From NCBI GenBank assembly GCA_035493615.1, contig DATJHW010000085.1:1363-65362 (forward strand): a stretch of 64,000 bases of DNA, given 5' to 3'. Both the position numbers and the translations under genes were made by a program. Below are positions 5,358 to 60,568 of the stretch, piece by piece. The DNA comes from Candidatus Saccharimonadales bacterium. Its GTDB lineage: Bacteria; Chloroflexota; Limnocylindria; P2-11E. The notes under the pieces are model-generated. The model did no database searches. It was given only the letters and a program-made list of their open reading frames with translations, and was not told the origin of the DNA. The first letter of the stretch is position 1. The number at the start of each line of letters is the position of its first letter.

Positions 5358-6076
5358 GCCGTCAGCTTCGCGCGGATCGCGTCCAGCTGCTCGGCGCGAA
5401 CGCCGGCCAGGCCGAGGTATGGGGCGGCGCCCCCGAACGCCTCCCGCAGCGCCGCGAGGGTCCGCTCCATCACCCAGGCCCGCTTGGCCACGCCGTCGTC
5501 GACCGCGGCTGCGCGATCGGGATTCTCGGCCTTGAATCGCTCGTACTCGGGGACCAGCTCAGCGTCGCTGGCCGCGTAGTCGGCGACGATCTCGGCATCG
5601 GGCACCCCGAGCGCCGCGAGCAGCGTCGCGATCACGATCCCCGTCCGGTCTCGGCCGGCGACACAGTGCAGCAGGATCGCCGGCTCCGCCTCGGCGATGG
5701 CCCCGATCACGTCCGCGAGCCCGCCGTCCGGGACCGCGATGCGTCGCAGCTCGTCGGCCAGCGTCCCGGCGTGCGCGCCATCGTGGAGGGCCATGATCCG
5801 GGCCGAGGTGAACGGCACCCGCCGGTAGGTCACGCCCTCGCGGTACGGGCTCGCGCTCTCGGCCACCTCGTCGTCGCCGCGGAGGTCGATGACCGTGCGG
5901 ATGCCGTGCGCGCGGACCGCCGCCCGTCCCGCGTCCGTGAGCGTCCCGATCATCGACGCGCGGACCAGCCGCCCGCGGGCCAGCAGGACGTCACCGCACG
6001 TCAGGCCACCGATGTCGCGAACATTGAGGCAGGCGTCCCAGGCGAGACGCCGGTCGGCCGCGACTATGCGCTCCAG
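5354..6076 (-). CDS. Protein-tyrosine phosphatase (Y_phosphatase3-like, CX5R active site)
   Basis: C-terminal about 240 codons of track ORF 5354..7111: LNVRDIGG...IRTVIDLRGDDE...HCVAGRDRTG (CX5R loop). No ATG/GTG/TTG lies between the conserved N-terminus and the upstream gene. The start is placed provisionally at CTG 6076..6074 (ATA 6067..6065 is also possible), so the 5-prime end is uncertain. Confidence 0.7.
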   Translation of the reverse strand: MERIVAADRRLAWDACLNVRDIGGLTCGDVLLARGRLVRASMIGTLTDAGRAAVRAHGIRTVIDLRGDDEVAESASPYREGVTYRRVPFTSARIMALHDGAHAGTLADELRRIAVPDGGLADVIGAIAEAEPAILLHCVAGRDRTGIVIATLLAALGVPDAEIVADYAASDAELVPEYERFKAENPDRAAAVDDGVAKRAWVMERTLAALREAFGGAAPYLGLAGVRAEQLDAIRAKLTA

Positions 6077-8517: not shown

Positions 8518-9742
8518 AGCGGCGCGACCGCGCGGGTCGGCACGTACCGGTCGGGCAGGCGTGGCCGTCGATGTGCGAGCGGTAGTCGTCGGCGAATTCG
8601 CTCATCGTCGTCTTCAGGATGGACGCGCTCGTGATCCCGAAGCCGCAGAGCGAGAACTGCTCGAGATGGTTCGCGAGCTCGCCGAGCCACGGCAGGTCGT
8701 CGGCACGACCGAGGTCGGAGTAGATCCCCTCGAGGATGCCCTCGACCCGCTTCGTGCCGACCCGGCACGGGACGCAGATGCCGCAGGTCTCCTTCGCGAG
8801 GTAGTCGAACAGCTTCGCCGCCTCGTTCACGATGCACACCGCTGGGCCGATGACCCGGATCTGCGCGGAGCCGAGGTGGGTGCCCGCCGCCTTGAGCGAC
8901 GCGTAGTCGAGGGCGACGCCGGTCCGCGTCGAGTTGAGGATGCCGCCGGTCGGACCACCGACGTGCAGCCCTTTCAGCGTCCCGCCCGTTGCGCCCCCGG
9001 CCCTCGAAACGATGTCCCCGAGCGTCTCGCCGAACGCGACTTCGTAGACGCCGGGCGATGCGACCGCACCGGTCACCGAGACGAGCTTGGTCCCGGGCGA
9101 CGACTCGGTCCCGACGCGTCGGAACGCCTTGGCGCCGTCGCGCACGATCAGGGGCAGCGCCGCGAGCGTCTCGGCGCTCGACACGACCGTCGGACGAAGG
9201 AGTAACCCCTGGCGCGCCGGGTACGGCGGCCGTTGCCGGGCCATCGCCCGGCGCGATTCGAGCACGGCGAGCAGCGCGGACTCCTCGCCGCCCATGAACC
9301 CACCGGGCCCGAGCGCGACCTCGATCTCGAGATCGCCCAGGGTGGGCCGCGCCGCTTCGAGCGCGCGGTCGGCCGCGCGCTTGGCGCTTTCGGCATCCGG
9401 ACGGAGGTAGAGATAGCCGCTCGTCGCGCCCACGGCGGCGGCAGCGATCGCAAGGCCCTCGATCACGAGCTCGGGCTTCTTCAGGAGGATCGTGCGCGCG
9501 AGCGGGCTGCCCGGGTCCGCGTCGTACGCGTTCGCGACGACGTACGCGCTGCCGCCGGCAGCGGCGGCGCGGGCGGTCGCGAGCTTGCGCGCGAGGGGGA
9601 ACCCTGCCCCGCCGCGGCCGCGCAGGCCGCTCGCTTCGATGACCCCGATGAGCTGGTCGGGCCCCATCGACCTGGCGCGGTCGCGCTCGTGCGCCGCGTT
9701 GACGTCCGTGTCGAGGATCCGGTACGCGGCGCTAGTCGGCAA
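8495..9742 (-). CDS. nuoF: NADH dehydrogenase flavoprotein subunit F-like (51-kDa type)
   Basis: 415 aa with GLRGRGGAGFP, ANAYDADPGS (divergent NADESEPG), GGEESALL, ETCGICVPCRVG and SLCGFG motifs. The TTG start 9742..9740 overlaps the upstream gene end by 11 nt. Confidence 0.85.
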   Translation of the reverse strand: MPTSAAYRILDTDVNAAHERDRARSMGPDQLIGVIEASGLRGRGGAGFPLARKLATARAAAAGGSAYVVANAYDADPGSPLARTILLKKPELVIEGLAIAAAAVGATSGYLYLRPDAESAKRAADRALEAARPTLGDLEIEVALGPGGFMGGEESALLAVLESRRAMARQRPPYPARQGLLLRPTVVSSAETLAALPLIVRDGAKAFRRVGTESSPGTKLVSVTGAVASPGVYEVAFGETLGDIVSRAGGATGGTLKGLHVGGPTGGILNSTRTGVALDYASLKAAGTHLGSAQIRVIGPAVCIVNEAAKLFDYLAKETCGICVPCRVGTKRVEGILEGIYSDLGRADDLPWLGELANHLEQFSLCGFGITSASILKTTMSEFADDYRSHIDGHACPTGTCRPARSRRYETMAQP

Positions 9743-10451
9743 ACGCGGGCTCCAGCGGGTGCGTCACCTCGTGCTCGTGCAGCCGATCGTGCGATGGAGC
9801 GGGGCTCTGCTCCGGCCACAGGCCGGCGATCGCGACGTTGCCGGTGTAGCGGCGGCCGCCGCGCGGGATCGGCGTGCCCTGTCCGTCCGGCGCGCCGCGG
9901 AAGTTCGAGAGCAGCGACGCGGTCGTGTAGAGGTGCGTCATCTGCACGCCGAACGCAGCCGCGATCCGCTCGGCCGCGCTCCACGGGAGGTAGCCATACG
10001 CGTCGTTCGTCGCGTAGAGCACCCGCGTCATCCGGTCCGCGCCCGCGGGCGTCTCGTGAAGGATTCGGTCGACGATGCCGAGGTCGAGCCCGCGCTCGGC
10101 TTCCGCGGGCACGGTGAGCACCGCGTTCGACAGCGGGCGGCGGTCGCCGTACGGCGCCGTCTGGACCATCCGGATGCGGTAGTAGGAGGCGCGCGGCGCG
10201 ATCGGCGGCCGCTTTCGGAAGGCGTTGCGGAACGTGTACGAGATCGAGATCGCTCGCGGCGGGCAGGCCTTCTCGCACATCAGGCACGACTCGCACTTGA
10301 AGATGCTGGTCTCGGGCTCGAGCAGCAGCGCGATGAGCCCGCGGCTGCGCTCCGGCAGCTCGCGCTTCTCGTACGGGTACTTGCGCGTGACGCTCTTGCG
10401 CATGAACACGTGACTGAGCGTCCGCTTCATGCCGTTGAGGATCCCGAGCAT
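9732..10451 (-). CDS. Chimeric NuoI N-terminal half (single CxxCxxCxxxCP) fused to a NuoE-like N-terminal helical domain
   Basis: Real part of track ORF 9732..10736 starts at ATG 10451..10449 (TAATG overlap with the nuoD stop).
- MLGILNGMKRTLSHVFMRKSVTRKYPYEKRELPERSRG...FKCESCLMCEKACPPRAISI is NuoI-like.
- LYATNDAYGYLPWSAAERIAAAFGVQMTHLYTTASLLSNF is like the NuoE N-terminus.
Only 4 Cys occur in the whole protein. Confidence 0.7.
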   Translation of the reverse strand: MLGILNGMKRTLSHVFMRKSVTRKYPYEKRELPERSRGLIALLLEPETSIFKCESCLMCEKACPPRAISISYTFRNAFRKRPPIAPRASYYRIRMVQTAPYGDRRPLSNAVLTVPAEAERGLDLGIVDRILHETPAGADRMTRVLYATNDAYGYLPWSAAERIAAAFGVQMTHLYTTASLLSNFRGAPDGQGTPIPRGGRRYTGNVAIAGLWPEQSPAPSHDRLHEHEVTHPLEPAFAD

Positions 10452-11590
10452 TACCGGTCCACGTCGCCGAGCACGATGTCGATCGAGCCGAGGATCGCCA
10501 CGACGTCCGCGACGAGCCGGCCCTGAAGAAGCCACGGCAGGATCTGCAGGTTGTTGAACGACGGGCCGCGCATTTTCGCCCGGAACGGGTTCGTCGCCGA
10601 GCCGCCCGAGCTGATCATGTAGATGCCGACCTCGCCCTTGGCGCCCTCGACCGTGTAGTAGGCCTCGCCCTTCGGGCACTTCCACACGTGGCCGAGCCGC
10701 GCGCGCACGGCGCCACCGGGGAGGTTCGCGATGCACTCGCGCACGATGTCGATGGCCCGGCGCATCTCGCCGAGCCGCACCTTGTACCGCGCGTACGCGT
10801 CGCCCTCGACCGAGGTCACCGACTTGAAGCTCTCAAGCTCGGGGTAGATGGAGTACGGGCGGTCCTTCCGGAGGTCCCAGTCGACCCCCGACGCGCGGAG
10901 GATCGGGCCGGTGAGGCCGTACTGGGTCGCGACGACCCCGGGGATGCCGCCGACGCCGATGGTCCGCTCGAGGAAGATCTCGTTCGTCTCGAAGAGCTCG
11001 ACGTAGTCCCGCTCGATGTGCCCGGCGAACCGGTCGAGGAACCGCTCGAGCTTGGCCAGCATGCCCGGCGGGAAGTCGTAGAGCACGCCGCCCGGACGGA
11101 AGTAGTTGAAGTTCATGCGCGACCCGCAGAGCTCCTCGAACAGGTCGAGGATCTCCTCGCGGTCGCGGAAGCAGTAGAGCATCGGCGTCGTCGCGCCGAC
11201 ATCGAGGCCGTAGGTGCCGAGCCATACGAGGTGCGACGCGCAGCGCGACAGCTCGTCCACGATCACGCGGATGTACTCGGCCCGCCGCGGGACGTCGATC
11301 CCGCCGATGGCCTCCATCGCGCCGGCGTAGCAGTGCTCCTGCAGCATGTTGGAGACGTAATCGGCCTGGTCGGCGTAGCGGATGCCCTGGTGGAATGTTC
11401 GCCACTCGAAGATCTTCTCGATCCCCCGGTGCAGGTAGCCCATGACCGGGATGCACTCGACGACCTTCTCGCCCTGGAGCTTCAGCACGAGCCGGAGGAC
11501 GCCGTGGGTCGATGGGTGCTGCGGCCCGAGGTTGAGGATGAGCTCCTCGGTCTCGAGGCCCTCGTCGCTCTCGATGACCGGGAGCTTCAC
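10451..11590 (-). CDS. nuoD: NADH-quinone oxidoreductase subunit D (49-kDa type, not fused to NuoC)
   Basis: 379 aa: LNLGPQHPSTHGVLRLVLKLQGEKV...GYLHRGIEK...ends SIDIVLGDVDR. GTG start 11590 with GAGGAAG 9 nt upstream. There are no NiFe-hydrogenase Cys motifs. Confidence 0.9.
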   Translation of the reverse strand: MKLPVIESDEGLETEELILNLGPQHPSTHGVLRLVLKLQGEKVVECIPVMGYLHRGIEKIFEWRTFHQGIRYADQADYVSNMLQEHCYAGAMEAIGGIDVPRRAEYIRVIVDELSRCASHLVWLGTYGLDVGATTPMLYCFRDREEILDLFEELCGSRMNFNYFRPGGVLYDFPPGMLAKLERFLDRFAGHIERDYVELFETNEIFLERTIGVGGIPGVVATQYGLTGPILRASGVDWDLRKDRPYSIYPELESFKSVTSVEGDAYARYKVRLGEMRRAIDIVRECIANLPGGAVRARLGHVWKCPKGEAYYTVEGAKGEVGIYMISSGGSATNPFRAKMRGPSFNNLQILPWLLQGRLVADVVAILGSIDIVLGDVDR

Positions 11591-11641
11591 CGAGGCGGCT
11601 TCCTCGATCGCCGCACGCTCGCGGTCGATGGTGGTCAGCGC

Positions 11642-12226
11642 TCAGCCACCTTTGAAGATCTTCTCGCGAAGCCGGAGCACGCCCTCGGTCAATGCCTCGG
11701 GCCGCGGCGGGCAGCCCGGCACGTACACGTCGACCGGGACCACGGTATCGACGCCCTGGAGTGTCGCGTAGCTGTCCCAGAACTCGCCCCCGGAGCTCGC
11801 GCAGTTGCCCATCGCGATGACCCACTTCGGCTCGGGCATCTGCTCGTACAGGCGCCGCAGCCGCGGAGCCATCTTGTGGGTGACGGTACCCGCGACGATC
11901 ATCACGTCGGCCTGGCGGGGGCTCGAGCGGAACACCTCGGCGCCGAAGCGCGCGAGATCGTGGTGCGACGCGGCGCTCGCCATCATCTCGATCGCGCAGC
12001 ACGCGAGGCCGTAGCCGAGCGGCCACGGGCTCCGCGAGCGGGCCCAGTTCACGAGCATGTTCACCGACGTGAACACGATGTTGTCGTCGCTGGCGGTGAC
12101 GCCGGAGATCATCCGCGGCTCGTGGCCGCCCATCCCGGTCTGGGTGGTCAGCGGCCGGCGCTGGATGACGTCCTCTTCGAAATCGATGGGATGGACGTCG
12201 AGGGGGGCCTTCTGATCGATCGCCAT
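11642..12226 (-). CDS. nuoB: NADH-quinone oxidoreductase subunit B (20-kDa type)
   Basis: 194 aa with [18 protein letters not shown] and [11 protein letters not shown] (N2 cluster ligands). Confidence 0.9.
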
Positions 12227-12237
12227 CAGATGTCAGT

Positions 12238-34458: not shown

Positions 34459-36260
34459 CACCGGGCGCTCCACGTCCAGAACGCCAGCAGCACGACCGTC
34501 CCCACGAGCAGCAGCGCGTGCTGGGCCCGCGCGCTCGCGGGGATCGCGCCGCGCAGCGCGTCCGACCCGCGCTGCGCGAGCGTGCCGACGCCGGCCACGG
34601 CCTGATCGTTCACGCGCTCGGCGCCCTCGTCGAGCTCGCGCGCGACGGTGCGGAAGGGGATCGCGACCGCCCGGTCGTAGAGCGCATCGACGCCAAGGCC
34701 GCCACGGGCCCAGCGCATGGCGCGCTCGATGCGCTCCGCGCCTCGAAGGCCACGGTGATACCCGAGCCACGCGGCGATCGAAGATGCGAGCACGACGGCG
34801 AATATCGCCCCGAGCAGCCACGCCGGAGCTTCGTCGGCAGGCCCGCTCCCGATCGGCAGGAGCCCGGCGCTGACCAGGGCGCCGAAGGCGAGCGCGCCGA
34901 TCGCGAGGAGCACCAGCGACACGTCCTGCAGCCGCCGTGGCGCGTCGGTCGCGCGTACCGCCGCAGGCGGCGCCGCGAACATGAGCGCGAAGAGACGCAC
35001 GCCGGCGAACGCGGACGCGGCGACGGCCAACAGCACGAGCGCGGTGAGGAGCGCATCGCTCTCCGAGAACGCCGCGCTCACGATGGCGGCAATGCCGAAG
35101 AAGCCTGCCGCAGGCGGGATCCCGATGAGCGCCAGCGTGCCGATGCCGAACGCTCCCGCGGTCCAGCGCATCCGCCAGCCGATCCCGCCGCGGCGCGCGA
35201 TATCCGATTCGTCACCGGTCGCGCGCCGCACCGAGCCGGCGCCGAGGACCAGCACCGCCTTCACGACGGCGTGCGCGATGAGCTGGAAGCGCGCCGCGAA
35301 GAGCGCGCCCAGACCAGCGGCGACGAACATGAGCCCGACCTGCGAGATCGTCGACCAGGCGAGGACGCGCCGCACGTCACGCTCGGCGATCGCGACCACC
35401 GCCGCGCCGAGCGCGGTGAACCCGCCGATGATCGCCGCGGCCTGCAGCACCTCAGGCACGAGCACGGAACGCATCCGCATCAACAGCACGACCCCGCCCG
35501 TCACGGCCACCGTCTGGAGGAGTGCGGACACCGGCGTGGGCGCTTCTGTGGCGTCGGAGAGCCACCCATGGAGCGGCGCCTGCGCGGACTTGGCGAGCGC
35601 GCCGATCAGCAACAGGACGCTGGCGACGATCGGCGCACCGCCGATCGTGCTCCCGTGCTCGAGCGCGACGCCACTGAGCTGCGCGAGGTCCACGGTGTGG
35701 AACTCGGCGAGGAGCAGCAGCGTGCCGGCGACAAGCGCCGCGTCCCCGATCCGGTCGACCACGAACAGCTTCGACGCGGCCGCCGCCGCGGCAGCGTGAT
35801 CGCGGTGATGCCCCACGAGCAGGTAGGCGGCAACGCCGGCGAGCTCCCACCCCGCCACGATGAGGAGGAGGTTGGCGCCGAGCACGACGAGGAGGGTCCC
35901 GGCGACCTGGAGCGAGAACGAGGAGAAGTACCGCTGCAGACCGCGGTCGCGGGCAAGGTAGCCGATCGAGTAGAGCGCGATGAGCGCCGAGACGCCGGCG
36001 ATCGCCAGCGCGACCGCGAGCGTCGCGCTGTCGACGGTGAGCGCGAGGTCCGCGCCGGGAAGCGGCAGCCACGTGGCGATGAAGGCATCGACCGTCGGAC
36101 GATCGCGCAGGGTCGCGAGCATCGACCCGCCGGCGCCGAACGACAGGAGCAGCGCGAGCGTCGTGGCGATGCCGAGGGTCCGGCGACCGAGCCGGCCGCC
36201 GAGCACCGCGATCGCGATCGCGTTCGCGAGCGGGATCGCGACGACGAGCACGAGCGTCAC
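34458..36260 (-). CDS. nuoL: NADH-quinone oxidoreductase subunit L
   Basis: 600 aa. GWELAGVAAYLLVGHH, AKSAQAPLHGWLSDATEAPTPVSALL, and a long C-terminal amphipathic extension. Confidence 0.9.
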   Translation of the reverse strand: MTLVLVVAIPLANAIAIAVLGGRLGRRTLGIATTLALLLSFGAGGSMLATLRDRPTVDAFIATWLPLPGADLALTVDSATLAVALAIAGVSALIALYSIGYLARDRGLQRYFSSFSLQVAGTLLVVLGANLLLIVAGWELAGVAAYLLVGHHRDHAAAAAAASKLFVVDRIGDAALVAGTLLLLAEFHTVDLAQLSGVALEHGSTIGGAPIVASVLLLIGALAKSAQAPLHGWLSDATEAPTPVSALLQTVAVTGGVVLLMRMRSVLVPEVLQAAAIIGGFTALGAAVVAIAERDVRRVLAWSTISQVGLMFVAAGLGALFAARFQLIAHAVVKAVLVLGAGSVRRATGDESDIARRGGIGWRMRWTAGAFGIGTLALIGIPPAAGFFGIAAIVSAAFSESDALLTALVLLAVAASAFAGVRLFALMFAAPPAAVRATDAPRRLQDVSLVLLAIGALAFGALVSAGLLPIGSGPADEAPAWLLGAIFAVVLASSIAAWLGYHRGLRGAERIERAMRWARGGLGVDALYDRAVAIPFRTVARELDEGAERVNDQAVAGVGTLAQRGSDALRGAIPASARAQHALLLVGTVVLLAFWTWSAR

Positions 36261-36517
36261 GCCGGCCGCCGGATCCGGGAGACGAGCGCATACCCGACGA
36301 TGGCCTGCGCGGCGGCGACCGCGATCGCGATGAGCGCGGCGATCTGACCGTCGAGCTCGCGGAAGCCGACCCCCGAGGCCGCGAAGGTCAGAGTCGCGGC
36401 CGCGACCATGAGCTCGACGCCGACGAGGCGTCCGGCCGCCGACGTCCGAACGACGGTGCCGACCGTGCCGACCGCGAACAGGACCGCGCCGAGTGCGAGG
36501 TACGCGGCTGTGGTCAC
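36257..36517 (-). CDS. nuoK: NADH-quinone oxidoreductase subunit K
   Basis: 86 aa with three TM helices and conserved Glu residues (GVELMVAA..., AIAVAAAQAIVG). 4-nt overlaps on both sides. Confidence 0.8.
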   Translation of the reverse strand: MTTAAYLALGAVLFAVGTVGTVVRTSAAGRLVGVELMVAAATLTFAASGVGFRELDGQIAALIAIAVAAAQAIVGYALVSRIRRPA

Positions 36518-37017
36518 CGCACGGGCTGCCGGTCGCGCCGCGCCGCTCGCGCGGCGACCAGCGCCGCGAACAGGACGACGAGCGATCCGCCAGCCGCGAC
36601 CGCGCCGCGGCCGGTCAGCAGACCGCCAAACGCGGCGACGTCGTATCCATCACCGGACCGCACGGAGACGTTCACGGGAACCTCTCCAGCGACCACGGCG
36701 ACGGCGAGGAGCCCGAGCAGCGTCACGCCGAGCACGAGGGCGAGGGCCGTCACCGTCGGACCGTCGGCAGCTTCGTGGACACGCGACGTCGGCACCGTGA
36801 GGTGCACGACGAATGGCAAGGTCGAGAACAGTGCGACCGCGATCACCGCGGCTGCGACCATCGGCGCCGCCAGTCCCGCGTAGAGAACGGCCAGTGCGAG
36901 GAGCGTGCCGGCGAGCGCGACGCCGGCTGTGCGGGCATCGCGATGGGCGACCGCGGTGACGGCACCCGCGACGCAGACCGCGCCCGCGACCGTGAAAACG
37001 ATCTGGTCGATGCTCAT
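36514..37017 (-). CDS. nuoJ: NADH-quinone oxidoreductase subunit J
   Basis: 167 aa. MSIDQIVFTVAGAVCVAGAVTAVAHRDARTAGVALAGTLLALAVLY is like NuoJ N-termini. First gene of the J-N block. Confidence 0.75.
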   Translation of the reverse strand: MSIDQIVFTVAGAVCVAGAVTAVAHRDARTAGVALAGTLLALAVLYAGLAAPMVAAAVIAVALFSTLPFVVHLTVPTSRVHEAADGPTVTALALVLGVTLLGLLAVAVVAGEVPVNVSVRSGDGYDVAAFGGLLTGRGAVAAGGSLVVLFAALVAARAARRDRQPVR

Positions 37018-37056
37018 CGCGCTGGAGTGTCGCGCACCGCGTCAGGTCGCGTCGGC

Positions 37057-38069: not shown

Positions 38070-38375
38070 CTAGTCCGATCGGGTGAACGCTCGCTCGACC
38101 ACTTCCAGGGCATGCACCGGGATGTGCACGTCCGCGTGCCGTCGCAGGAGGATCGCGAAGGGGACGGGCCCGTCCACCAGGATCCGCGGCCCGTCGACGA
38201 TCCGCGCCGGGACCGCGGTCGCCCCGTCGCTCAGACTCAGCTGTGACCCGATCGCGACCAGAGCCGACCGGCTCCGGCGCAGCTCGTCGACGAGCGCGCA
38301 TCGGTCACCGATGCTGTCGGCGATGGCGCGCAGGTACGCGTCGCTACCGGAGAGGACGCCCTGCTTCCGCCGGGC
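38070..38375 (-). other. 101-codon coding-like frame with no ATG/GTG/TTG start, in frame directly after the TGA of the upstream lipoprotein gene
   Basis: Translation ARRKQGVLSGSDAYLRAIADSIGDRCALVDELRRSRSALVAIGSQLSLSDGATAVPARIVDGPRILVDGPVPFAILLRRHADVHIPVHALEVVERAFTRSD, stop TAG 38072..38070. G/C-ending codon usage matches neighbouring genes. Confidence 0.3.
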
Positions 38376-39587
38376 TCAGCGGCTCCCCACTGCCAGGACG
38401 CCGAGCGAAGCGGGTGCCGCGGCGAGCGTGCCGAGCGGTCTGCCGGTCGCGGCCTCGACCTTCGTGATCGTGCCGCCCGAGACGGCGTACAGCCGCTGAC
38501 CGTCAGCGCTGATCGCGACCGAATCGACGAGCCGGTCGGTCAGGTAGCGCGCGCGCACGGACAGATCGCCGGTATAGATGACGATCACGCCGTGGTCGGC
38601 TGCCGCGTAGATCCGCGTGCCATCCGCCGACAGCGCCGCCGGATGGACCGGCGCGCCCGTCAGCGAGCTCGCCGCCGGTGCGACCTCGATGTTCGAGCGC
38701 AGCACGACGAGCGCCGAGGTGTTGATCTCGCTGACGACGCCGCCGGCGCCGTTCACGGCGTACAGCCGGTCGTGGTTCGCATCGAGGAGCATCGACCAGG
38801 CCGGCCGGAGCGCGGCGGGCACGTCGGGCATGTTGAGGATGCACTGCGCGTAGAGCTGCGTCGTGTTCAACGCGTGGATGAACGGACCGCGTCCCGGGTT
38901 CGAGTACAGGCTGAGGAACCAGTCGCTGCCGACCGCGACGGACGCGTGATACAGGCCGTTCATGACCTCTGGCTCGGCGGTCTTGATCTGGCCGAGCACG
39001 CCGTCCTGCAGGCCTGCGCCGTTGAAGCTCGCCACGCGCACCGCGTAGTGCGGCGCCGGTACGAGGTGCTCCACGAGGTACAGGTTGCGGCCGTCGTCGC
39101 TGACCGCATCGAATCCCACGTCGCCGTCCGCGGTGACCACGCGGTCGAGCGTTCCCTTCGCGAGGTCGACGACGGCGAACCGGTTGACCATCGTGGCGCC
39201 GGTCGCGTGCGGCGGCGCGACGAGCACCATCCACTTGCCGTTGGCCGACAGACCGCTCGGCGCAGGACCGTACGACGCCGGCATCGACCAGCGCCCGTCG
39301 AGCACGAACGACTCTCGGTCGATGCCGGTCGCGGGGTCGATGCCGCGAACGGTCGTGCGGTCGCCCGGATCGACGGTCCAGTACCGCGAGCGGTCCGGCA
39401 GCAGGGTGCCGACCGGGAGCGCCGCGACCAGCGAGTCCGTGGTCGCATCGACGACCGACATCCCGGTCGCCGTGGCGACATACAGGAGCTCGTGCGCGGG
39501 CTGCGAGGCCACCTGCGACGTGTCTTCCTTGAGGCTGCCGCAGGCCGAGAGCAGCAGGACCGCCAGGAGCACGGAAAACTGGCGCAC
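38376..39587 (-). CDS. Lipoprotein with beta-propeller-like repeats (YncE/YVTN-like)
   Basis: Lipobox LLLSACGS. Recurrent ..LYVA/LYAV..G..V..ID strands (ELLYVATATGMSVVD, RLYAVNGAGGVVSEIN, RIYAAADHGVIVIY, RLYAVSGGTITKVE). Confidence 0.75.
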   Translation of the reverse strand: MRQFSVLLAVLLLSACGSLKEDTSQVASQPAHELLYVATATGMSVVDATTDSLVAALPVGTLLPDRSRYWTVDPGDRTTVRGIDPATGIDRESFVLDGRWSMPASYGPAPSGLSANGKWMVLVAPPHATGATMVNRFAVVDLAKGTLDRVVTADGDVGFDAVSDDGRNLYLVEHLVPAPHYAVRVASFNGAGLQDGVLGQIKTAEPEVMNGLYHASVAVGSDWFLSLYSNPGRGPFIHALNTTQLYAQCILNMPDVPAALRPAWSMLLDANHDRLYAVNGAGGVVSEINTSALVVLRSNIEVAPAASSLTGAPVHPAALSADGTRIYAAADHGVIVIYTGDLSVRARYLTDRLVDSVAISADGQRLYAVSGGTITKVEAATGRPLGTLAAAPASLGVLAVGSR

Positions 39588-39626
39588 GACCTCCCTACAA
39601 CGGGCGGCCGCACCGGGTTCCCCGCG

Positions 39627-46707: not shown

Positions 46708-47556
46708 CTAGCTACCGCTCTCGATCGGTGCGCCGATCAGGCTGCCGTATTCGGTCCAGCTTCCGTCGTAGTTCCGGACCTTCTCGTGGCCGAGCAGGTA
46801 CTTCAACACGAACCAGGTGTGGGAGCTGCGCTCGCCGATGCGGCAGTACGCGATCGTCTCGGTCGAGCCGTCGAGGCCCTTGTCCCCGTAGATCCGCCGG
46901 AGCTCGTCGGCTGTCTTGAACCGTCCGTCGTCGGCCACCGCCGTGGCCCACGGGACATTCACCGCACCCTTGATGTGCCCGGCTCGTTGCGCGCCCTCCT
47001 GCGGGAGGTTCTCGGGAGCGAGGAGCTCGCCCGAGAACTCCTTCTGGGAGCGGACGTCGACGAGCTTCTTTCCATTCTTCTCGACCGTCTCGAGGACGTA
47101 TTCGCGAAGCGCTCGCACGGAGCCATCCGGCGCGTTGGCCGTGTAGGCGGTCTCCGGGAACGTCGGAACCTCGGTCGTCGTCGGCCGTTGCTCGGCGAGC
47201 CACTTGGTTCGTCCGCCGTTCACGAGGCGGACATCGGCGTGACCGTAGTACTTGAGGAGCCAGAAGAACCAGGCCGCGAACCAGTTGTTGTTGTCGCCGT
47301 AGACCGCGATGGTCGTGCTCGGCGTGACGCCGTTCTTGGAGAGCAGCGCCTCGACCTGTGGCTTGGACAGGAGATCGCGCACCGGGCGCTGCTGGAGATC
47401 GGTCTTCCAGTTGAGCCCGATCGCTCCGCTCACGTGCGCCTGGTCGTACGCGGCCGTGTCCACGTCGACCTCGAATACACGGACGTTCGGATCGGTCGCG
47501 TGCTCGGCGAGCCAATCGGTCTCGACGAGCGCTTCGGGATGGGCATAGCCGGACAT
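46708..47556 (-). CDS. Thiosulfate/3-mercaptopyruvate sulfurtransferase (two-domain rhodanese)
   Basis: 282 aa. Active-site loop YCRIGERSSHTWF. N-terminal inactive rhodanese domain. Confidence 0.9.
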   Translation of the reverse strand: MSGYAHPEALVETDWLAEHATDPNVRVFEVDVDTAAYDQAHVSGAIGLNWKTDLQQRPVRDLLSKPQVEALLSKNGVTPSTTIAVYGDNNNWFAAWFFWLLKYYGHADVRLVNGGRTKWLAEQRPTTTEVPTFPETAYTANAPDGSVRALREYVLETVEKNGKKLVDVRSQKEFSGELLAPENLPQEGAQRAGHIKGAVNVPWATAVADDGRFKTADELRRIYGDKGLDGSTETIAYCRIGERSSHTWFVLKYLLGHEKVRNYDGSWTEYGSLIGAPIESGS

Positions 47557-48018
47557 GAAGAGCCGCCTTTCAATTACCCGCCTGCAGTGGCGGTTACTGG
47601 GTCTCGGTGGGCGAGGGCCGCCTCGTCAGCGGCCTAGAGACACCAGCAGGTGAGCCCGAAGCAGTCCGGGCCTCGTGAAATGGCGGTGCCGGGATTTCCG
47701 ACCTGGTGAGTCAACAATCCGGTTGTAGCACGGGATCCGCCCATAGCCAAGGGGTCCACGACCGCCGCCGGCTCGGTCAGGTGGTGGCGGCGCCGCGCGG
47801 CGAACCACTCCTCGTGCCACCGGTTCGTGTCCTGCCGGACGGCGTCGGGCCGCTCGCGGTCCGCCTCCGCACGCATCGCGCCGATCCCGCATCCCGAAGG
47901 CCGCGACGAGGACCTCCTTGATCGATCAGCGGGATGCGCCCTCGAGCGGCATGCGGTCCTCGACGAGGGTGTCGCCGACAGAACGCGACCCGCACACCCA
48001 CGCGAATATCGTATCGAC

Positions 48019-48462
48019 GTGCTCGACTTCGATCAGCTCGCGTTCATCGAGAAGTGGCGCCAGCGCGCGTCGCGCGGCGTCGTGATCGCGCTCGATGGCA
48101 CGCGCGGGGACATCGTCGTGACGATGCGTGCGGGCGAGCTCGGCGAACGGCTCGACCTGCGCGGCAAGGACGCGACCGGCGCCGTGCGCAAGGCGCGCCT
48201 CTCGATCGGCGACCGCGTGACGATGGCGATCGAGTACACGGCGAAGGATGTGACCGCCGGCGCGGGTGGAGGCGTGAGCGGCGACCTCGTCGCGCCGGGC
48301 GCGGTCGTCGAAGGGACGGTATCGGAGACGGGCGAGCTCACGGTCGTGGACTGCGGGATCGCGCTCCTGGTGAAGGGCGAGAGTCTGGCCGCGAAGACCG
48401 GTGACGTGGTGCGGTTCACGATCGCGGACGAGGGCCGCGCGTACCTCATCCCGACGCGCTAG
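48019..48462 (+). CDS. Hypothetical protein
   Basis: Protein-like part of track ORF 47827..48462 from in-frame GTG 48019 (LDFDQLAFIEKWRQRASRGVVIALDGTRGDIVVTMRAGELGERLDLRGKD...[18 protein letters not shown]). No family recognised and the start is uncertain. It converges on the peroxiredoxin gene, with a 17-nt 3-prime overlap. Confidence 0.45.
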   Translation: MLDFDQLAFIEKWRQRASRGVVIALDGTRGDIVVTMRAGELGERLDLRGKDATGAVRKARLSIGDRVTMAIEYTAKDVTAGAGGGVSGDLVAPGAVVEGTVSETGELTVVDCGIALLVKGESLAAKTGDVVRFTIADEGRAYLIPTR

Positions 48463-48922
48463 TCGGAAGCTTCTGCAGCTGTTCGGCGATCTCTTCCTCG
48501 TCGGGCACCTCGCGCAGCGTGTGGACGTCGATGTACCGGACGACGCCCTGCGCGTCGACGACCACGATCGCGCGCTCCGGCCGGCCGATCTCCTCGTTGA
48601 ACACGCCGTAGAGCCGTGAGACCGCGCCGTGCGGCCAGAAGTCGGAGCAGAACGGGTAGCTTGTGATGCCGAGCTGCTCCGCCCACGCTTTCAGCGTGTA
48701 CACCGAATCGCACGTGATACCCACGACCTGGGTCGTCCCCGCCTCGTATCGCTGTTGGAGCGACGCAAGTGCCGGAGCCTCGTGGTTTCAGGTGCCGCTG
48801 AACGCGAACGCCATGAACGCGACGACGACGCGCTGGCCCCGCAGGGCCGAGAGCGTGATCGTGCGGCCGTCATGCGCGCGCAGCGTGAAGTCGGGCGCCG
48901 GATCACCGACCTTCAGCGTCAT
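48446..48922 (-). CDS. Peroxiredoxin (AhpE/BCP-like, AhpC/TSA family) with in-frame TGA at the peroxidatic Cys position; probable selenocysteine protein
   Basis: ATG 48922. 44 codons, then TGA at 48790..48788, then 113 more codons in the same frame to TGA 48446. [99 protein letters not shown].... The track lists the halves as 48788..49132 and 48446..48724. Confidence 0.7.
48743..48787 (-). promoter_or_regulatory. Candidate SECIS-like hairpin region immediately 3-prime of the in-frame UGA
   Basis: mRNA: UGA AACCACGAGGCUCCGGCACUUGCGUCGCUCCAACAGCGAUACGAGGC. There are two alternative hairpins:
- CGAGGC-UCCGGCACUU-GCGUCG (+6..+27, one G.G mismatch, GG in the loop).
- A longer imperfect stem centred on UCGCU-CCAAC-AGCGA (+19..+45).
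Folded by eye only. Confidence 0.3.
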
Positions 48923-49009
48923 GGTCTCGGTCGCGATCTTCGTGCGACCCTTCGGTCGCTGCCCGCCCGCGGCGGGTCTCGCTTCAGCCACCTGCCTAAG
49001 ATAGCCCGC

Positions 49010-49222
49010 ATGCGAACGCGAGGCGCCGAGGGCCGGCGGATCACCGCGCGCCGGCGCGACTTCCTCGCGTATGAGACGGTGTGCCCGTTCTGCGGGGAGC
49101 ACGTCGGTCCACGGTTCGTGACCCGGGAGCATTCCGATGTGCCGCCGAACCCGCCCTACGCCGCGTCGGTGCGCTGCCCGCGGTGCCGCGAGACCTATGA
49201 GGTGATCTTCACCGACGACTGA
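49010..49222 (+). CDS. Small zinc-ribbon protein (70 aa)
   Basis: ATG 49010. ..[16 protein letters not shown]...[18 protein letters not shown] (two CxxC pairs). Confidence 0.5.
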
Positions 49223-56414: not shown

Positions 56415-56735
56415 TCACAATAGCTTTCCGATCGGTCCGAGGCCGAGGTTGAGGTCGTCCGGGTCCACGCCGAACGCCTCGGCCATCTCTCTGACCTTGG
56501 CCTCGAGGCGCATCAGCGCGACACCCACCCGTTCGATCTCATCATCGGCCAGCGTTCCTCCGTCCATTCGTCTGATCGCCTGACGCTCGAGAAGCTGCCG
56601 AAGGAACTCGACCAGGGTGAGGACCAGCTTCGCCAACCCCTGCTCGACACCTTCGGGATCGACATTGACGCGGTCCGGCAGGAGTCCCCGAACGCGCTCC
56701 AGCTCCCGCCGCAGCTCGCCGATCTCATCCTCCAT
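56415..56735 (-). CDS. gvpK: Gas vesicle protein GvpK
   Basis: ATG 56735. VDPEGVEQGLAKLVLTLVEFLRQLLERQAIRRMDGGTLADDEIERVGVALMRLE is typical GvpK. Confidence 0.8.
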   Translation of the reverse strand: MEDEIGELRRELERVRGLLPDRVNVDPEGVEQGLAKLVLTLVEFLRQLLERQAIRRMDGGTLADDEIERVGVALMRLEAKVREMAEAFGVDPDDLNLGLGPIGKLL

Positions 56736-57423
56736 GGCCGCTCCCCAGCTCCTCGGTGAAGCTGTAGGGAGGCCACGGACCGCTGACCACGGCGCGGACC
56801 CCGTCGATCGCACCCGCGGCCACCGCCGCTCGCGCCTTCAGCGCGTCAGCCTCGTCCTTTTCGGCCAGCAGCGACATGGACAGCGCCACCTCGGCACTCG
56901 GGCAACTTTCGTGCCGAACGTCCGCTTGGTCGACCGCCAGCTGGGCTGCGAGGCGCGCTGCGAACGCGTCCCCGGCGGTGCGGCGGTCGGCGGTGACCGC
57001 GTGCATCGCGCGTTGCCGCTCGAGGAACGCACGGCCCGACAAGGCGACGGCATGCCCGCGGCCCTCGGTCACGGCGGCGTCACGCCAAAGGAGCGTGATC
57101 GCGATCTCGCGGCGGTCGGCGAGCCGGTCGACCGCGGCGGTGAACCGGTCCTCCGAGACCTCGAGCGAACGCCGCGCGGCCTCGGCGTCCGCCAGCCACG
57201 TCCCGAATCGGACCGGGAGGCACGGGCCGGCGTCGCAGAGCACCGCGACCAGGTCGTGGTGCGCGAACGCGTCATCGCGCGAGAGCTTCGGCTCGCCTTC
57301 CCAGACCGTCGCCCAGAGGCCGAGCTCCCCGGCCGCGATCTGCTCGAGTGGACGGCCGCCGACCCCGCTCTCCGGTCCGCCCGTGGCGCGCCGGGTGATC
57401 GCGTGGGCGAGGAGCCGGGTCAC
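56725..57423 (-). CDS. gvpL: Gas vesicle protein, GvpL/GvpF family
   Basis: GTG 57423 (GTGA overlap). LLAHAITRR...LPVRFGTWL...VVSGPWPPYSFT C-terminal signature of the L/F family. Confidence 0.75.
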   Translation of the reverse strand: MTRLLAHAITRRATGGPESGVGGRPLEQIAAGELGLWATVWEGEPKLSRDDAFAHHDLVAVLCDAGPCLPVRFGTWLADAEAARRSLEVSEDRFTAAVDRLADRREIAITLLWRDAAVTEGRGHAVALSGRAFLERQRAMHAVTADRRTAGDAFAARLAAQLAVDQADVRHESCPSAEVALSMSLLAEKDEADALKARAAVAAGAIDGVRAVVSGPWPPYSFTEELGSGHGG

Positions 57424-57617
57424 TTCTTGCGCGCCTCCAGCTGGGCGATCGATTCGGTCGCGGCGAGGATCACGTTGAGCCCCAGGTAGATCAGGTCTAC
57501 GCCGGCCACGGAGATGGTCGCCTCGCCGGTGATGACGACGCCGCGATTGAGCAGCCGATCCGCGAGGTCCAGCACGCTGAGCTCCTCGTCCGGCAGGGCG
57601 GCGAGCCGGCCGGTCAT
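57420..57617 (-). CDS. gvpS: Small GvpA-family protein (GvpS-like)
   Basis: ATG 57617 (ATGA overlap). LSVLDLADRLLNRGVVITGEATISVAGVDLIYLGLNVILAATESI. 65 aa. Confidence 0.75.
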   Translation of the reverse strand: MTGRLAALPDEELSVLDLADRLLNRGVVITGEATISVAGVDLIYLGLNVILAATESIAQLEARKK

Positions 57618-58399
57618 GAGAGCTCGACCGTGGCGAAGCGATACGCGGGCCACGGACCGCTGAGCTCCAGCGCGTAGCCGCGCGCATCCCACCGCTTGAC
57701 GTACGCCGTGATGATCCCGTCGAGCTCGATGCCGGCGTCGCGACGTGCGAGCACCGAGAACCGCGCGAGCATCCCGCCGCCGGCATCTTCGACGAGCGGC
57801 TCGCGGAACAGTCGCATCTGCGCGCGCTCGAACGCCTCGGTCGCGTCGACGATGGCCGCTGCGTCGGCCGCACGGAGCTCCGTCCGCTTCGTCTCATCGA
57901 GCTGGCGCGTGAGCAGGTAGCCGCGTCCGGGCGGGGCCGCCTCGATCTCCGAACGCAGCGCGCGGAGCGGCTCGCTCTCCTCCTCGAGCCGCGCGAGCGC
58001 CTTCGCCCTGTCGCGGCGAACGACGGCGATCCACTCCGCCCGGCCTCGCAGCGCTTCGAACCGCGGCCCCATCTCCGCGGCGCGCTCCGCGAGCATGCGC
58101 GCGACGCCCGGGGTGTCGCGGAACACCGTCCCGAATGAGAGCGGCACGAGCGGATCGCAGACGGCCGCGAGCGCCGCGTTCACCTCTTGATGACGCACCG
58201 CGCGCGGAGTGAGCCATTCCATGTCGGCGAGGTGTGCGTTCAGGGGCTCCTCCGCGTATTCGCGCTCCGGCACGTCGCTCACGAATGCCGCCAGGTCGCC
58301 CGCGCCGACCGTCCGGACGGCGCCGTCGTCGAGCCCGCGGAGCCCAGCGGGCGCGGTGCTGCCGGCGCGCGCGATCGCGTACACGTAGACCAGGCTCAC
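57614..58399 (-). CDS. Gas vesicle protein, GvpF/GvpL family (second paralogue)
   Basis: MSLVYVYAIAR...VPLSFGTVF...LSGPWPAYRFATV. 261 aa. Confidence 0.8.
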   Translation of the reverse strand: MSLVYVYAIARAGSTAPAGLRGLDDGAVRTVGAGDLAAFVSDVPEREYAEEPLNAHLADMEWLTPRAVRHQEVNAALAAVCDPLVPLSFGTVFRDTPGVARMLAERAAEMGPRFEALRGRAEWIAVVRRDRAKALARLEEESEPLRALRSEIEAAPPGRGYLLTRQLDETKRTELRAADAAAIVDATEAFERAQMRLFREPLVEDAGGGMLARFSVLARRDAGIELDGIITAYVKRWDARGYALELSGPWPAYRFATVELS

Positions 58400-58734
58400 C
58401 CGGGGCGGTCGAGCTCCTCGGGGGTCTCGATCACGGCAACACGTTCGTCCCCGGTCTCGGAGAGCAGGCCAGCCAGCTGCTCTTCGGCGAGCTGCCGGCG
58501 GTAGGCCTTGATCTCGGAGTACCGCGCGAGGAGCGGAGCCTCCTGGCGGCGGAACTCGGCTTCGTCGATCTCGCCCTCCTCGAAGCGCAGGTTGAGGAGC
58601 ATGAGGTCCTCTTTCACCGCGGTGTCGTCGGTCATCTCCTGCTCGGCCATGTCGATGACCTGCTGCAGGCAGTACCGGATGCCTGCCGCCGGGAGCGAGT
58701 ACGGAAGTGTGAGCAGCTTGCCAAGGCCGAACAC
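58396..58734 (-). CDS. gvpG: Gas vesicle protein GvpG
   Basis: MFGLGKLLTLPYSLPAAGIRYCLQQVIDMAEQEMTDD...LNLRFEEGEIDEAEFRRQEAPLL is GvpG-like. Confidence 0.8.
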   Translation of the reverse strand: MFGLGKLLTLPYSLPAAGIRYCLQQVIDMAEQEMTDDTAVKEDLMLLNLRFEEGEIDEAEFRRQEAPLLARYSEIKAYRRQLAEEQLAGLLSETGDERVAVIETPEELDRPG

Positions 58735-58737
58735 GGC

Positions 58738-59556
58738 CTAGACCGACGCCGAGCGCTCGAGCTGCAGGCGGATGGTCACGAAGTTATAGGGCGGCCAGGG
58801 GCCGGTGTACCGGAACGAGAGCGTGCCCTCGAACTTCTTGCCGATGTCGTGGACCTTCGCATCGAAGTGCTCCGCCTGATCGCGCCCGACGAGGAAGGCC
58901 GCGTTCATGATCATCTTGTCGCCGATCACCTTGTTGGACCGCGACGCGATCGCCGCGTCGCGCAGGTGGTCGTAGATCTCGCGGACGATCGACTCCGACC
59001 GATCCACGAGCGCCTGCTCGACCAGGCGGCCAAGCTGCATGCGCGCGAAGTAGGTCGACGACTGGGTATTCGTCTCGATCTCGGCCTTCAGCCGGCGGAT
59101 CTCCTCGTTCTGCTCTTCGATCTCGCGCAGGACCTGATCGCGGTCCCAGTTCACCTTGAGCCCGAACTCGAGCTTGTCCTTCATCTTGACCAGGACGTCG
59201 CGGAGCGCGTCGTAGGTGTCCTTCAGGAACTCCACGGTGTCCTCGTCGGTCTTGAACAGCGTGCCGAAGCTCATCGGCACCGGGGTGAACCCGTGCTCGT
59301 TCATCACGACTTCCTGGACGTGCTCGTGGGTGAGGGCGTTCTCGCGCGTCGGGTCGTACACCACGAGCGGCGCCCGGCTGACGACGGCAGCGAGATCGCG
59401 GTAGTGGACCGTGAAGACCTCATCGCTTCGCCCGCCGATGCCGATCTTCCCGAACGCCCGCGGCTCGCTCGACTCGATGATGCAGTAGACGTAGACGCCT
59501 TCCCGGCTGCCCTCGGCGACCGCCGTCGCGCCGCGTTCGTCGCTCATTGGACGCAA
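58738..59556 (-). CDS. gvpF: Gas vesicle protein GvpF
   Basis: GVYVYCII...VHYRDLAAVVS...PMSFGTLFK...YTGPWPPYNFV. 272 aa (the start may be the second Met at 59547). Confidence 0.85.
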   Translation of the reverse strand: MRPMSDERGATAVAEGSREGVYVYCIIESSEPRAFGKIGIGGRSDEVFTVHYRDLAAVVSRAPLVVYDPTRENALTHEHVQEVVMNEHGFTPVPMSFGTLFKTDEDTVEFLKDTYDALRDVLVKMKDKLEFGLKVNWDRDQVLREIEEQNEEIRRLKAEIETNTQSSTYFARMQLGRLVEQALVDRSESIVREIYDHLRDAAIASRSNKVIGDKMIMNAAFLVGRDQAEHFDAKVHDIGKKFEGTLSFRYTGPWPPYNFVTIRLQLERSASV

Positions 59557-59559
59557 ATA

Positions 59560-59790: not shown

Positions 59791-60119
59791 CTGACAAGAC
59801 CGAACCGGCCGATCGGCGCGTACCGGAAGACCGGGCGGCCGACCACGGCCGAGCCGGGGATCGGCCCGAACTGGCGGGAATCGGTCGATTCGGCGGGATC
59901 GGCGTGGTCGCCCTGGATGGTCACTCCGTCCGGTGCCACCGACCGGACGCGCTTCACGAGCAGCCGTTCCGGCTCGCGCGGGTCCGCCGCCACGACGACC
60001 TCGCCGGGACGCGGCGGCCGGCGGAGCCGGCGGACAAGGAGCCAGTCGCCGTCGCGGAAGGTCGGCTCCATGCTCTGTCCGGCGACGGCGACCCTGAACA
60101 GTGCCGTCGCCGGTCTCAC
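59787..60119 (-). CDS. sodX: S26-type signal-peptidase-like protease, probable Ni-SOD maturation protease
   Basis: GTG 60119 (GTGA overlap with the sodN stop). VAVAGQSMEPTFRDGDWLLV...LVKRV...GDHADPAESTDSRQFGPI. Position directly after sodN. Confidence 0.75.
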   Translation of the reverse strand: MRPATALFRVAVAGQSMEPTFRDGDWLLVRRLRRPPRPGEVVVAADPREPERLLVKRVRSVAPDGVTIQGDHADPAESTDSRQFGPIPGSAVVGRPVFRYAPIGRFGLVR

Positions 60120-60526
60120 TTCTTGGTGGCCCAGAAGATGTCGGCGATCTCCTTGACCGCCGCCTGCAGATCGGCCGCGGCCTTCGCGTCGATGCTCTGC
60201 TTGTTCTTCGAGCAGAGCTTCGCGGCCGTCCAGAACGTGTCGTGGAGCTTCGGGTACTTCTCGAGGTGCTCGGGCTTGAAGTAGTCGGTCCAAAGGATGA
60301 GCAGCTCCTTCTTGCAGATCTGAGCGTGCTCCTCCTTCACCGCGACCGAGCGGATGTACGTGTTGCGGCTCGCGTCATCCCCGCCCGTCGATCCGGTGAT
60401 CTTCTCGACCATCTTCGCCACGGTCTGTGCGGCGATCGTCGCGGCCGTGGGGTCGTAGATGCCACACGGGATGTCGCAGTGAGCATGCGCCACGAGGCGC
60501 GGCGCGAGGATCGAGCGCAGGTCCAT
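60116..60526 (-). CDS. sodN: Nickel-containing superoxide dismutase
   Basis: MDLRSILAPRLVAHA leader followed by the Ni-hook HCDIPCGIYDP. 136 aa. GGAGGA 6 nt upstream of the ATG. Confidence 0.9.
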   Translation of the reverse strand: MDLRSILAPRLVAHAHCDIPCGIYDPTAATIAAQTVAKMVEKITGSTGGDDASRNTYIRSVAVKEEHAQICKKELLILWTDYFKPEHLEKYPKLHDTFWTAAKLCSKNKQSIDAKAAADLQAAVKEIADIFWATKK

Positions 60527-60568
60527 GAGTCGTCCTCCCCGGTGATGTGCTCCGGATTATGGGCGCGG

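Follow-up and report, generated by a model that had tools for sequence, protein, structure and literature searches.

An interrupted AhpE-type peroxiredoxin gene of Candidatus Limnocylindria that very probably encodes a selenoprotein

Relation to known selenocysteine-containing peroxiredoxins

To our knowledge, PrxU of Eubacterium acidaminophilum (Sohling et al. 2001) is the only peroxiredoxin (Prx) in which selenocysteine (Sec) has been shown experimentally. Bacterial peroxiredoxins with the AhpC/TSA domain (PF00578) and Sec in a T/SxxU motif are an established selenoprotein family (Zhang et al. 2006, PMC1794560; PMC9312934; PMC13188914), within which five independent Cys-to-Sec events have been reported. 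Here we describe a peroxiredoxin gene (prx) with an in-frame UGA codon on contig DATJHW010000085.1 of the Limnocylindria assembly GCA_035493615.1; the window, the whole stretch of DNA that was analysed, comprises 64,000 nucleotides (positions 1,363 to 65,362 of the contig). The gene occupies positions 48446..48991 of the minus strand, is single and intact, and very probably codes for a genuine selenoprotein, an AhpE-type 1-Cys peroxiredoxin in which Sec68 is the peroxidatic residue. Peroxiredoxins with Sec are already known; what is new here is the AhpE subfamily, the Limnocylindria lineage, the modified active-site motif and the atypical loop of the candidate Sec insertion sequence (SECIS). 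The literature searched made no mention of a Sec-peroxiredoxin from Limnocylindria or from the AhpE subfamily.

When Sec was replaced by Cys, the product was found to contain a full AhpC/TSA domain (PF00578, profile positions 1-124 of 124, E=2.5e-32, 111.8 bits against a cutoff of 26). Its best solved relatives, the top seven PDB sequences, were all AhpE of M. tuberculosis (MtAhpE, Rv2238c), with E values of about 1e-28, and the next match stood at 2e-14. The MtAhpE match (E=1.7e-28) was collinear over residues 3-143 and aligned AFTGIC with AFSGT[U]. The gene had been called PrxU-like in the original prediction, and the analogy is sound as far as the presence of Sec at the catalytic site is concerned. 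The family label did not stand: the best NCBIfam model was the PrxU equivalog NF040737 (peroxi_PrxU), yet the score was 61.4 bits against a cutoff of 270. Because these PDB matches are all AhpE and the score with the PrxU equivalog is below its cutoff, the product is, judged from its amino acid sequence, an AhpE-type peroxiredoxin and not a member of the PrxU family. Its similarity is highest to AhpE and not to AhpC/Prx1, BCP/PrxQ, Tpx or Prx6. A neighbor-joining tree likewise placed it beside MtAhpE-like Cys forms and apart from the BCPs.

MtAhpE (PDB 1XXU, 1XVW, 4X0X, 5ID2) is the prototype of the 1-Cys mechanism. It has in common with the window protein a 16-residue signature, a Thr or Ser three residues ahead of the peroxidatic residue and the catalytic Arg. 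However, where MtAhpE has Cys45 and Pro38, the window protein has Sec and Ala, and it differs further by an N-terminal extension of 15-23 residues and by an invariant extra Cys, Cys94, in the sequence GITCD. PrxU also has Sec in place of the peroxidatic Cys, but it belongs to a different peroxiredoxin subfamily (the NF040737 model is 233 positions long) and comes from a strict anaerobe, whereas the organism of the window has 70% GC and a nickel superoxide dismutase gene near prx, suggesting an aerobic lifestyle.

The bacterial Sec-peroxiredoxin family as a whole shares with the window protein the AhpC/TSA fold, the UGA at the peroxidatic position and the existence of Cys-containing homologues. 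The window clade apparently arose by a Cys-to-Sec switch inside a Cys-type clade, the same pattern that has been reported for this family. The motif of the family is PxxxTxxU (PMC13188914), in contrast to AxxxSxxU in the window protein. Two other groups have the same Pfam domain with Sec in a different place, namely the Prx-like thiol:disulfide oxidoreductase selenoproteins (PF00578), where Sec is part of UxxC or UxxU, and the UGC-containing Prx-like proteins, where it is part of a UGC motif and not of the peroxidatic T/SxxU. The window gene belongs to neither group, its UGA being located at the T/SxxU peroxidatic position.

Conservation of the gene and of its in-frame UGA

The open reading frame (ORF) track had split the gene in two, 48788..49132 and 48446..48724, both on the minus strand. 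These ORFs are in one frame with the TGA at 48790..48788 as the sole separator, as the original prediction had claimed, and the joined protein given there was reproduced by translation of the minus strand. The complete coding sequence (CDS), 48446..48991, has 181 codons plus a stop, and its true terminator, read from the sequence, is a TGA at 48446..48448. The Sec68 codon (48788..48790, minus strand) is the last of the active-site motif A61-F-A-F-S65-G-T-U68 (48788..48811, minus strand; translated as AFAFSGT followed by a stop), which corresponds to the peroxiredoxin PxxxT/SxxC with Pro changed to Ala and Cys to Sec. The Thr or Ser at -3 to the peroxidatic residue is present (S65-G-T-U68). The TGA had been placed on the catalytic Cys, and indeed the residue facing it in the alignments was the peroxidatic Cys in MtAhpE and the equivalent Cys in 14 Cys-type homologues. 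The codon of the conserved catalytic Arg140 is found at 48572..48574 (minus strand); this Arg, in PERAIVVVD, faces that of the MtAhpE sequence ANRGTFVVD.

When one genome per species was scanned, 33 loci were found with orthologues, 72-97% identical, in Candidatus Limnocylindria or Chloroflexota metagenome-assembled genomes; the Limnocylindria genomes recovered here came mostly from soil metagenomes. In all 33 orthologues this codon is an in-frame stop, in every case TGA, while their true terminators vary between TAG, TGA and TAA. None of these close relatives has TGC or TGT there, codons whose presence would have spoken for a recent mutation. Together with two more distant homologues described below, the TGA was present at the catalytic codon in 35 of 35 interrupted homologues, an agreement that chance comes nowhere near explaining. 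The coding character that had been noticed past the TGA was borne out by pairwise Nei-Gojobori ratios of nonsynonymous to synonymous substitutions (dN/dS), which were 0.205 upstream and 0.205 downstream of the TGA at a synonymous divergence (dS) of about 0.68. Purifying selection is equal on both sides, and therefore both halves have been translated in one frame through the history of the clade. At the aligned codon, the Cys-type homologues have TGC (those that are 56-61% identical, MtAhpE, a Gaiella protein and the BCPs); as read from these alignments, TGA facing TGC is the pattern by which Sec/Cys pairs are classically recognized. The Limnocylindria Sec forms were a single clade nested among Cys forms in the neighbor-joining tree. 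One copy of the gene, 79% identical and with 72% GC, was found on a contig binned as Candidatus Saccharimonadales (DATLEG010000149.1); the bin assignment is probably wrong, and the contig would belong to Limnocylindria.

TGA at the catalytic position was also found in two AhpC/TSA homologues that are 33-36% identical to the window protein, one from Candidatus Acidoferrum (Acidobacteriota; locus L035, 3001-3495) and the other from Candidatus Cybelea (Eremiobacterota; locus L037, 3001-3501), where the catalytic context reads AFTGG-U-TKQ. Both branch apart from the Limnocylindria Sec clade, which suggests an independent Cys-to-Sec switch and, probably, a separate lineage of Sec-peroxiredoxins. 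A further common trait concerns the Pro at -7 of the PxxxT/SxxC motif. This residue is Ala61 in the window (codon 48809-48811, minus strand) and Ala, Ser or Gly in all 33 orthologues, and the L035 and L037 Sec forms have Val where the peroxiredoxin Pro is expected; Pro was kept in the 14 of 14 Cys forms examined. With a Cys sample of this small size, the apparent loss of Pro across the Sec forms is taken as a lead and not as a result.

The start of the gene had to be revised. The original prediction placed it at the ATG at 48922, which is wrong by 23 codons: this codon (48920..48922, minus strand) is an internal one, Met24, and it is not conserved, being AAG, ACG, AAC, GGC or CAC in 32 of 33 relatives. 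The probable true start is the GTG at 48989..48991 (minus strand). In the alignment, the relatives have an in-frame GTG or ATG at the homologous place, behind a conserved motif and 13-23 codons upstream of the position of ATG 48922, and the GenBank gene calls in relatives include a 58-aa N-terminal ORF that begins at the codon homologous to GTG 48991. The dN/dS of the 13 codons preceding ATG 48922 was 0.31 in frame but 2.2 and 3.1 in the other frames, so the N-terminal extension is coding in the prx frame only. The extension is strongly conserved, and the closest Cys homologues have a similar one. The conserved motif, identified in the aligned upstream regions at 48995..49003 (minus strand), is TATCTTAGG, or TAGTCTAGG in the second (clade B) of the two orthologue clades discussed below, and its 3′-end is 3 nt before the start. 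The TATCTT located 6 nt ahead of the GTG start may serve a leaderless transcript as its -10 box. A simple sigma-70 scan was empty, and the search for a canonical promoter or terminator yielded none.

A SECIS-like element downstream of the UGA

Two hairpins had been drawn 6-45 nt past the UGA in the original prediction. Two conserved hairpins do exist, but their actual positions are +13..+53 and +54..+67. The first one is an extended stem-loop at 48737..48777 (minus strand), which folds on its own at -18.8 kcal/mol. In the consensus of clade A, it is composed of a lower stem (48777-48773/48741-48737), a middle stem (48769-48766/48746-48743) and an upper stem (48764-48759/48753-48748), all on the minus strand. 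Its apical loop, CCAAC in the window (48754..48758, minus strand), lies 29 nt after the UGA and has no G in loop positions 1-2. The second hairpin, ACGAC-CCAG-GUCGU (48723..48736, minus strand), is present in 100% of the orthologues and in the clade A consensus. It is of little information because the underlying sequence, which includes the QVVG codons, is nearly invariant.

The most position-conserved hairpins along the whole gene were those at +32..36 nt (94% of the sequences) and +58..66 nt (100%) after the UGA, and the former is found in a region that is variable at both the nucleotide and the amino acid level. The extended stem-loop started 11-13 nt after the UGA in each orthologue folded, and a stem-loop whose loop was 28-31 nt downstream of the UGA was found in 31 of the 33 orthologues. 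The three stems and a 5-nt loop are common to clade A, whose 19 sequences include that of the window; 15 of its 17 pairs are canonical throughout, and two are so in 18 of the 19. Clade B kept the stem-loop with a register shifted by about 2 nt and with a GC/CG swap, despite amino acid changes. A codon-anchored RNAalifold analysis of all 34 sequences had produced nearly no consensus because the register of the hairpin differs by about 2 nt between the clades, which were then analysed separately.

A longer-range pairing was also apparent. The sequence ACCUG at 48789..48793 (minus strand), that is, the Thr67 codon plus the UG of the UGA, is the perfect complement of CAGGU at 48730..48726. RNAalifold found these five pairs, 59 nt apart, invariant in all 34 sequences, and the degenerate third positions involved are frozen (Thr ACC in 33/33, Gln CAG in 33/33 and Val GTC in 32/33). 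The two segments may form a closing helix that encloses the UGA, in competition with the second hairpin.

The bacterial SECIS (bSECIS) model requires a loop of 3-9 nt, a stem of 4-16 bp, a G in loop position 1 or 2, a spacing of 16-37 nt and a minimum free energy (MFE) of -7.5 or lower (PMC13188914). The window element has a loop of 5 nt, an upper stem of 6 bp, a spacing of 29 nt and an energy of -18.8 kcal/mol, with no loop G. It shares with the bSECISearch model and the E. coli fdhF type a stem-loop inside the CDS just after the UGA, but these have a G (G[G/U]) in the first two loop positions. Thus, the folding check that had been proposed for the prediction gave a divided answer: spacing, loop size, stem and energy are within the model, while the loop G is absent and the stability is ordinary. 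The element is a plausible SECIS, conserved in position, yet non-canonical and unproven.

The observations that weigh against insertion of Sec concern this hairpin and the genomic context. Neither the CCAAC loop of the window nor the CCAGC loop of most of clade A has the consensus G in positions 1-2, a loop with the G could be drawn in only about a third of the orthologues, and no alternative hairpin with a loop G at an allowed spacing was conserved among them. The folding energy is ordinary for a sequence of 70% GC (z = -1.07 against dinucleotide shuffles). Synonymous-codon shuffles gave z = -0.14 for the window sequence and a mean of about -1.4 over 12 orthologues; with a weak signal overall and none for the window's own sequence, stability was dropped as evidence for a SECIS. 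Three of five Cys-type homologues have a hairpin of comparable MFE 27-37 nt after the TGC, and therefore the presence of a hairpin does not discriminate between the two forms. Likewise, Cys forms were found to carry hairpins in a study of Sec hydrogenases, where the loop G was used to tell the forms apart. Synonymous diversity was not lowered in the SECIS zone. A canonical SECIS is present in 87.4% of the entries of BSepDB, and about 12.6% are without one.

As for the genomic context, searches of the 64-kb window and of some 330 kb from related loci revealed no selA, selB, selD or tRNA-Sec gene. ARAGORN and Rfam detected no tRNA-Sec in the window, ARAGORN detected none in 35 loci, Pfam searches of essentially all window ORFs returned no SelA, SelB or SelD, and the regions within ±10 kb of three further orthologues contained no Sec machinery. 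These absences say little because the window is a small fraction of the genome. The use of Sec is documented in Chloroflexota, especially in Dehalococcoidia; nothing on selenocysteine in Limnocylindria or Ellin6529 was found in the literature searched. A screen of the window for coding-like sequences flanking a TGA found no second selenoprotein gene, returning the prx gene and two ordinary gene junctions (11644 and 38378).

Alternative explanations, proposed mechanism and gene neighbourhood

For any lone interrupted ORF, the default reading would be that a nonsense mutation has recently occurred, that the sequence or its assembly contains an error, or that the gene is a pseudogene in decay. 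This explanation is refuted by the same TGA in 33 independently assembled genomes at a dS of about 0.7, by purifying selection past the stop and by the lack of TGC or TGT in every close relative, and we give it practically no weight. Equally negligible is a genome-wide reassignment of UGA to sense (codes 4 or 25), for which the in-frame UGA itself, and nothing more, could be invoked. TGA terminates prx itself and several other genes whose Pfam domains are complete, so UGA works as a usual stop codon in this organism, and the TGA-flanking screen, which gave only prx and two ordinary gene junctions, also refutes the reassignment.

The two other alternatives accept the conserved UGA and are, in our estimate, each very improbable. 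In one of them the UGA terminates translation, or is read through at a low level by near-cognate tRNAs, leaving a 67-residue peptide, or a C-terminal fragment with its own initiation, in a role other than peroxidase. Gene callers and GenBank do report two ORFs and the SECIS evidence is indecisive. However, both pieces are needed for one thioredoxin-fold domain, so neither is a plausible folding unit, in agreement with the earlier claim that neither half would function alone. There is no conserved start after the UGA, the database fragments beginning at variable points (86-113 aa); the identical dN/dS on both sides and the strict collinearity with full-length Cys homologues would be unexpected for independent peptides; and the interrupting stop is always TGA, never TAG or TAA. 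In the other alternative, the UGA is recoded site-specifically to Cys by a selC-like tRNA-Cys with a UCA anticodon acting via SelB, and the product is an ordinary thiol peroxiredoxin. The conserved UGA, the selection and the hairpin fit Cys as well as Sec, and the mechanism has a precedent (Vargas-Rodriguez et al. 2018, RNA Biol 15:471; allo-tRNA work), but Cys-inserting systems are rare beside ordinary Sec decoding. Moreover, it would be hard to explain why the costly UGA/SelB route was kept over the divergence of more than 33 species when TGC is one mutation away, and the apparent loss of Pro from the two Sec lineages points to an active site adapted to a different atom.

Under the preferred interpretation, Sec insertion, and following the standard bacterial Sec pathway, translation would initiate at the conserved GTG 48991, and SelB-GTP-Sec-tRNA(Sec) would be recruited at the UGA by the stem-loop 48777..48737, with its apical loop 29 nt downstream. 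Sec would then be inserted instead of termination taking place, and translation would run to the TGA at 48448..48446. If the enzyme works as its homologue MtAhpE does, Ser65 and Arg140 would activate the selenolate, which would attack the hydroperoxide to form a selenenic acid, and a thiol partner would reduce this acid. The partner is probably a protein like glutaredoxin or mycoredoxin; the proposal is made because Cys homologues fused to glutaredoxin occur. These fusions (P0075 and P0103, 47-49% identical) consist of an AhpE-like domain and a C-terminal glutaredoxin domain with CPDC.

A more far-reaching idea, which we consider unlikely, is that the Limnocylindria enzyme represents a selenium-adapted remodelling of the active site coupled to a lineage-specific SECIS. 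It is raised because two apparently independent Sec lineages both lost the Pro and because the consensus G is missing from the C-CAG/A-C loop of the conserved hairpin. If true, the G-less loop would imply that SelB recognizes the SECIS in a manner unlike the E. coli and Moorella paradigm.

The gene is poorly served by current annotation. Among the 120 best matches in the protein database, 113 were C-terminal fragments of 86-113 aa, some in clusters with hundreds of members, which indicates that the TGA is where gene callers break the gene. GenBank records of relatives annotate it as a 58-aa and a 102-aa ORF, and the names given to the fragments are "redoxin domain-containing protein" or "AhpC". 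Fragmented annotation thus affects at least 33 species-level genomes and would hide a functional antioxidant enzyme. A conserved Sec peroxidase would imply that Limnocylindria keep the full Sec machinery and that their defence against oxidative stress is partly selenium-dependent. The locus would also offer to enzymology a naturally occurring Sec/Cys pair within AhpE, a simple 1-Cys scaffold, together with a naturally occurring Pro-to-Ala change at a site considered invariant among peroxiredoxins.

The closest neighbour of prx is a divergent ORF of 70 aa with a CxxC...CxxC zinc-ribbon pattern (49010..49222, plus strand), with 18 nt between its ATG and the prx start codon. The relatives share this pairing, a 69-70 aa ORF being found at the same place in loci L048-L050; only weak zinc-ribbon matches below the cutoffs were obtained for it. 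Another conserved near neighbour is a two-domain rhodanese at 46711-47625 (minus strand). Its best NCBIfam model, below the cutoff, was 3-mercaptopyruvate sulfurtransferase, and it has a weak match to the rhodanese ExtH of a selenite/tellurite operon.

Farther away, the regions 6067-12232 and 34461-37041 (both minus strand) encode NuoF-like, Fe-S/flavin oxidoreductase, NuoB-like (Oxidored_q6) and antiporter-type membrane subunits, along with a NuoD-like or [NiFe]-hydrogenase-large-subunit-like protein (Complex1_49kDa). They may belong to complex I or to a group 4 hydrogenase-like module. The gene of the Complex1_49kDa large subunit ends at TAA and has no sign of Sec. At 38070-39626 (minus strand), coding-like segments of 416 and 101 codons, neither with a Pfam match, are in the same frame and parted by the TGA at 38378..38376; they are probably two adjacent genes. 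The nickel superoxide dismutase gene at 60119-60556 (minus strand; Sod_Ni, E=3.7e-47) fits an oxygen-exposed lifestyle. A gas-vesicle cluster encoding GvpK, GvpG and GvpL/F is located at 56418-59559 (minus strand), about 8-10 kb from prx and beside two histidine kinase genes. This arrangement is syntenic across Limnocylindria contigs (positions 1-3600 of L048-L050), with GvpA-type genes added in the relatives.

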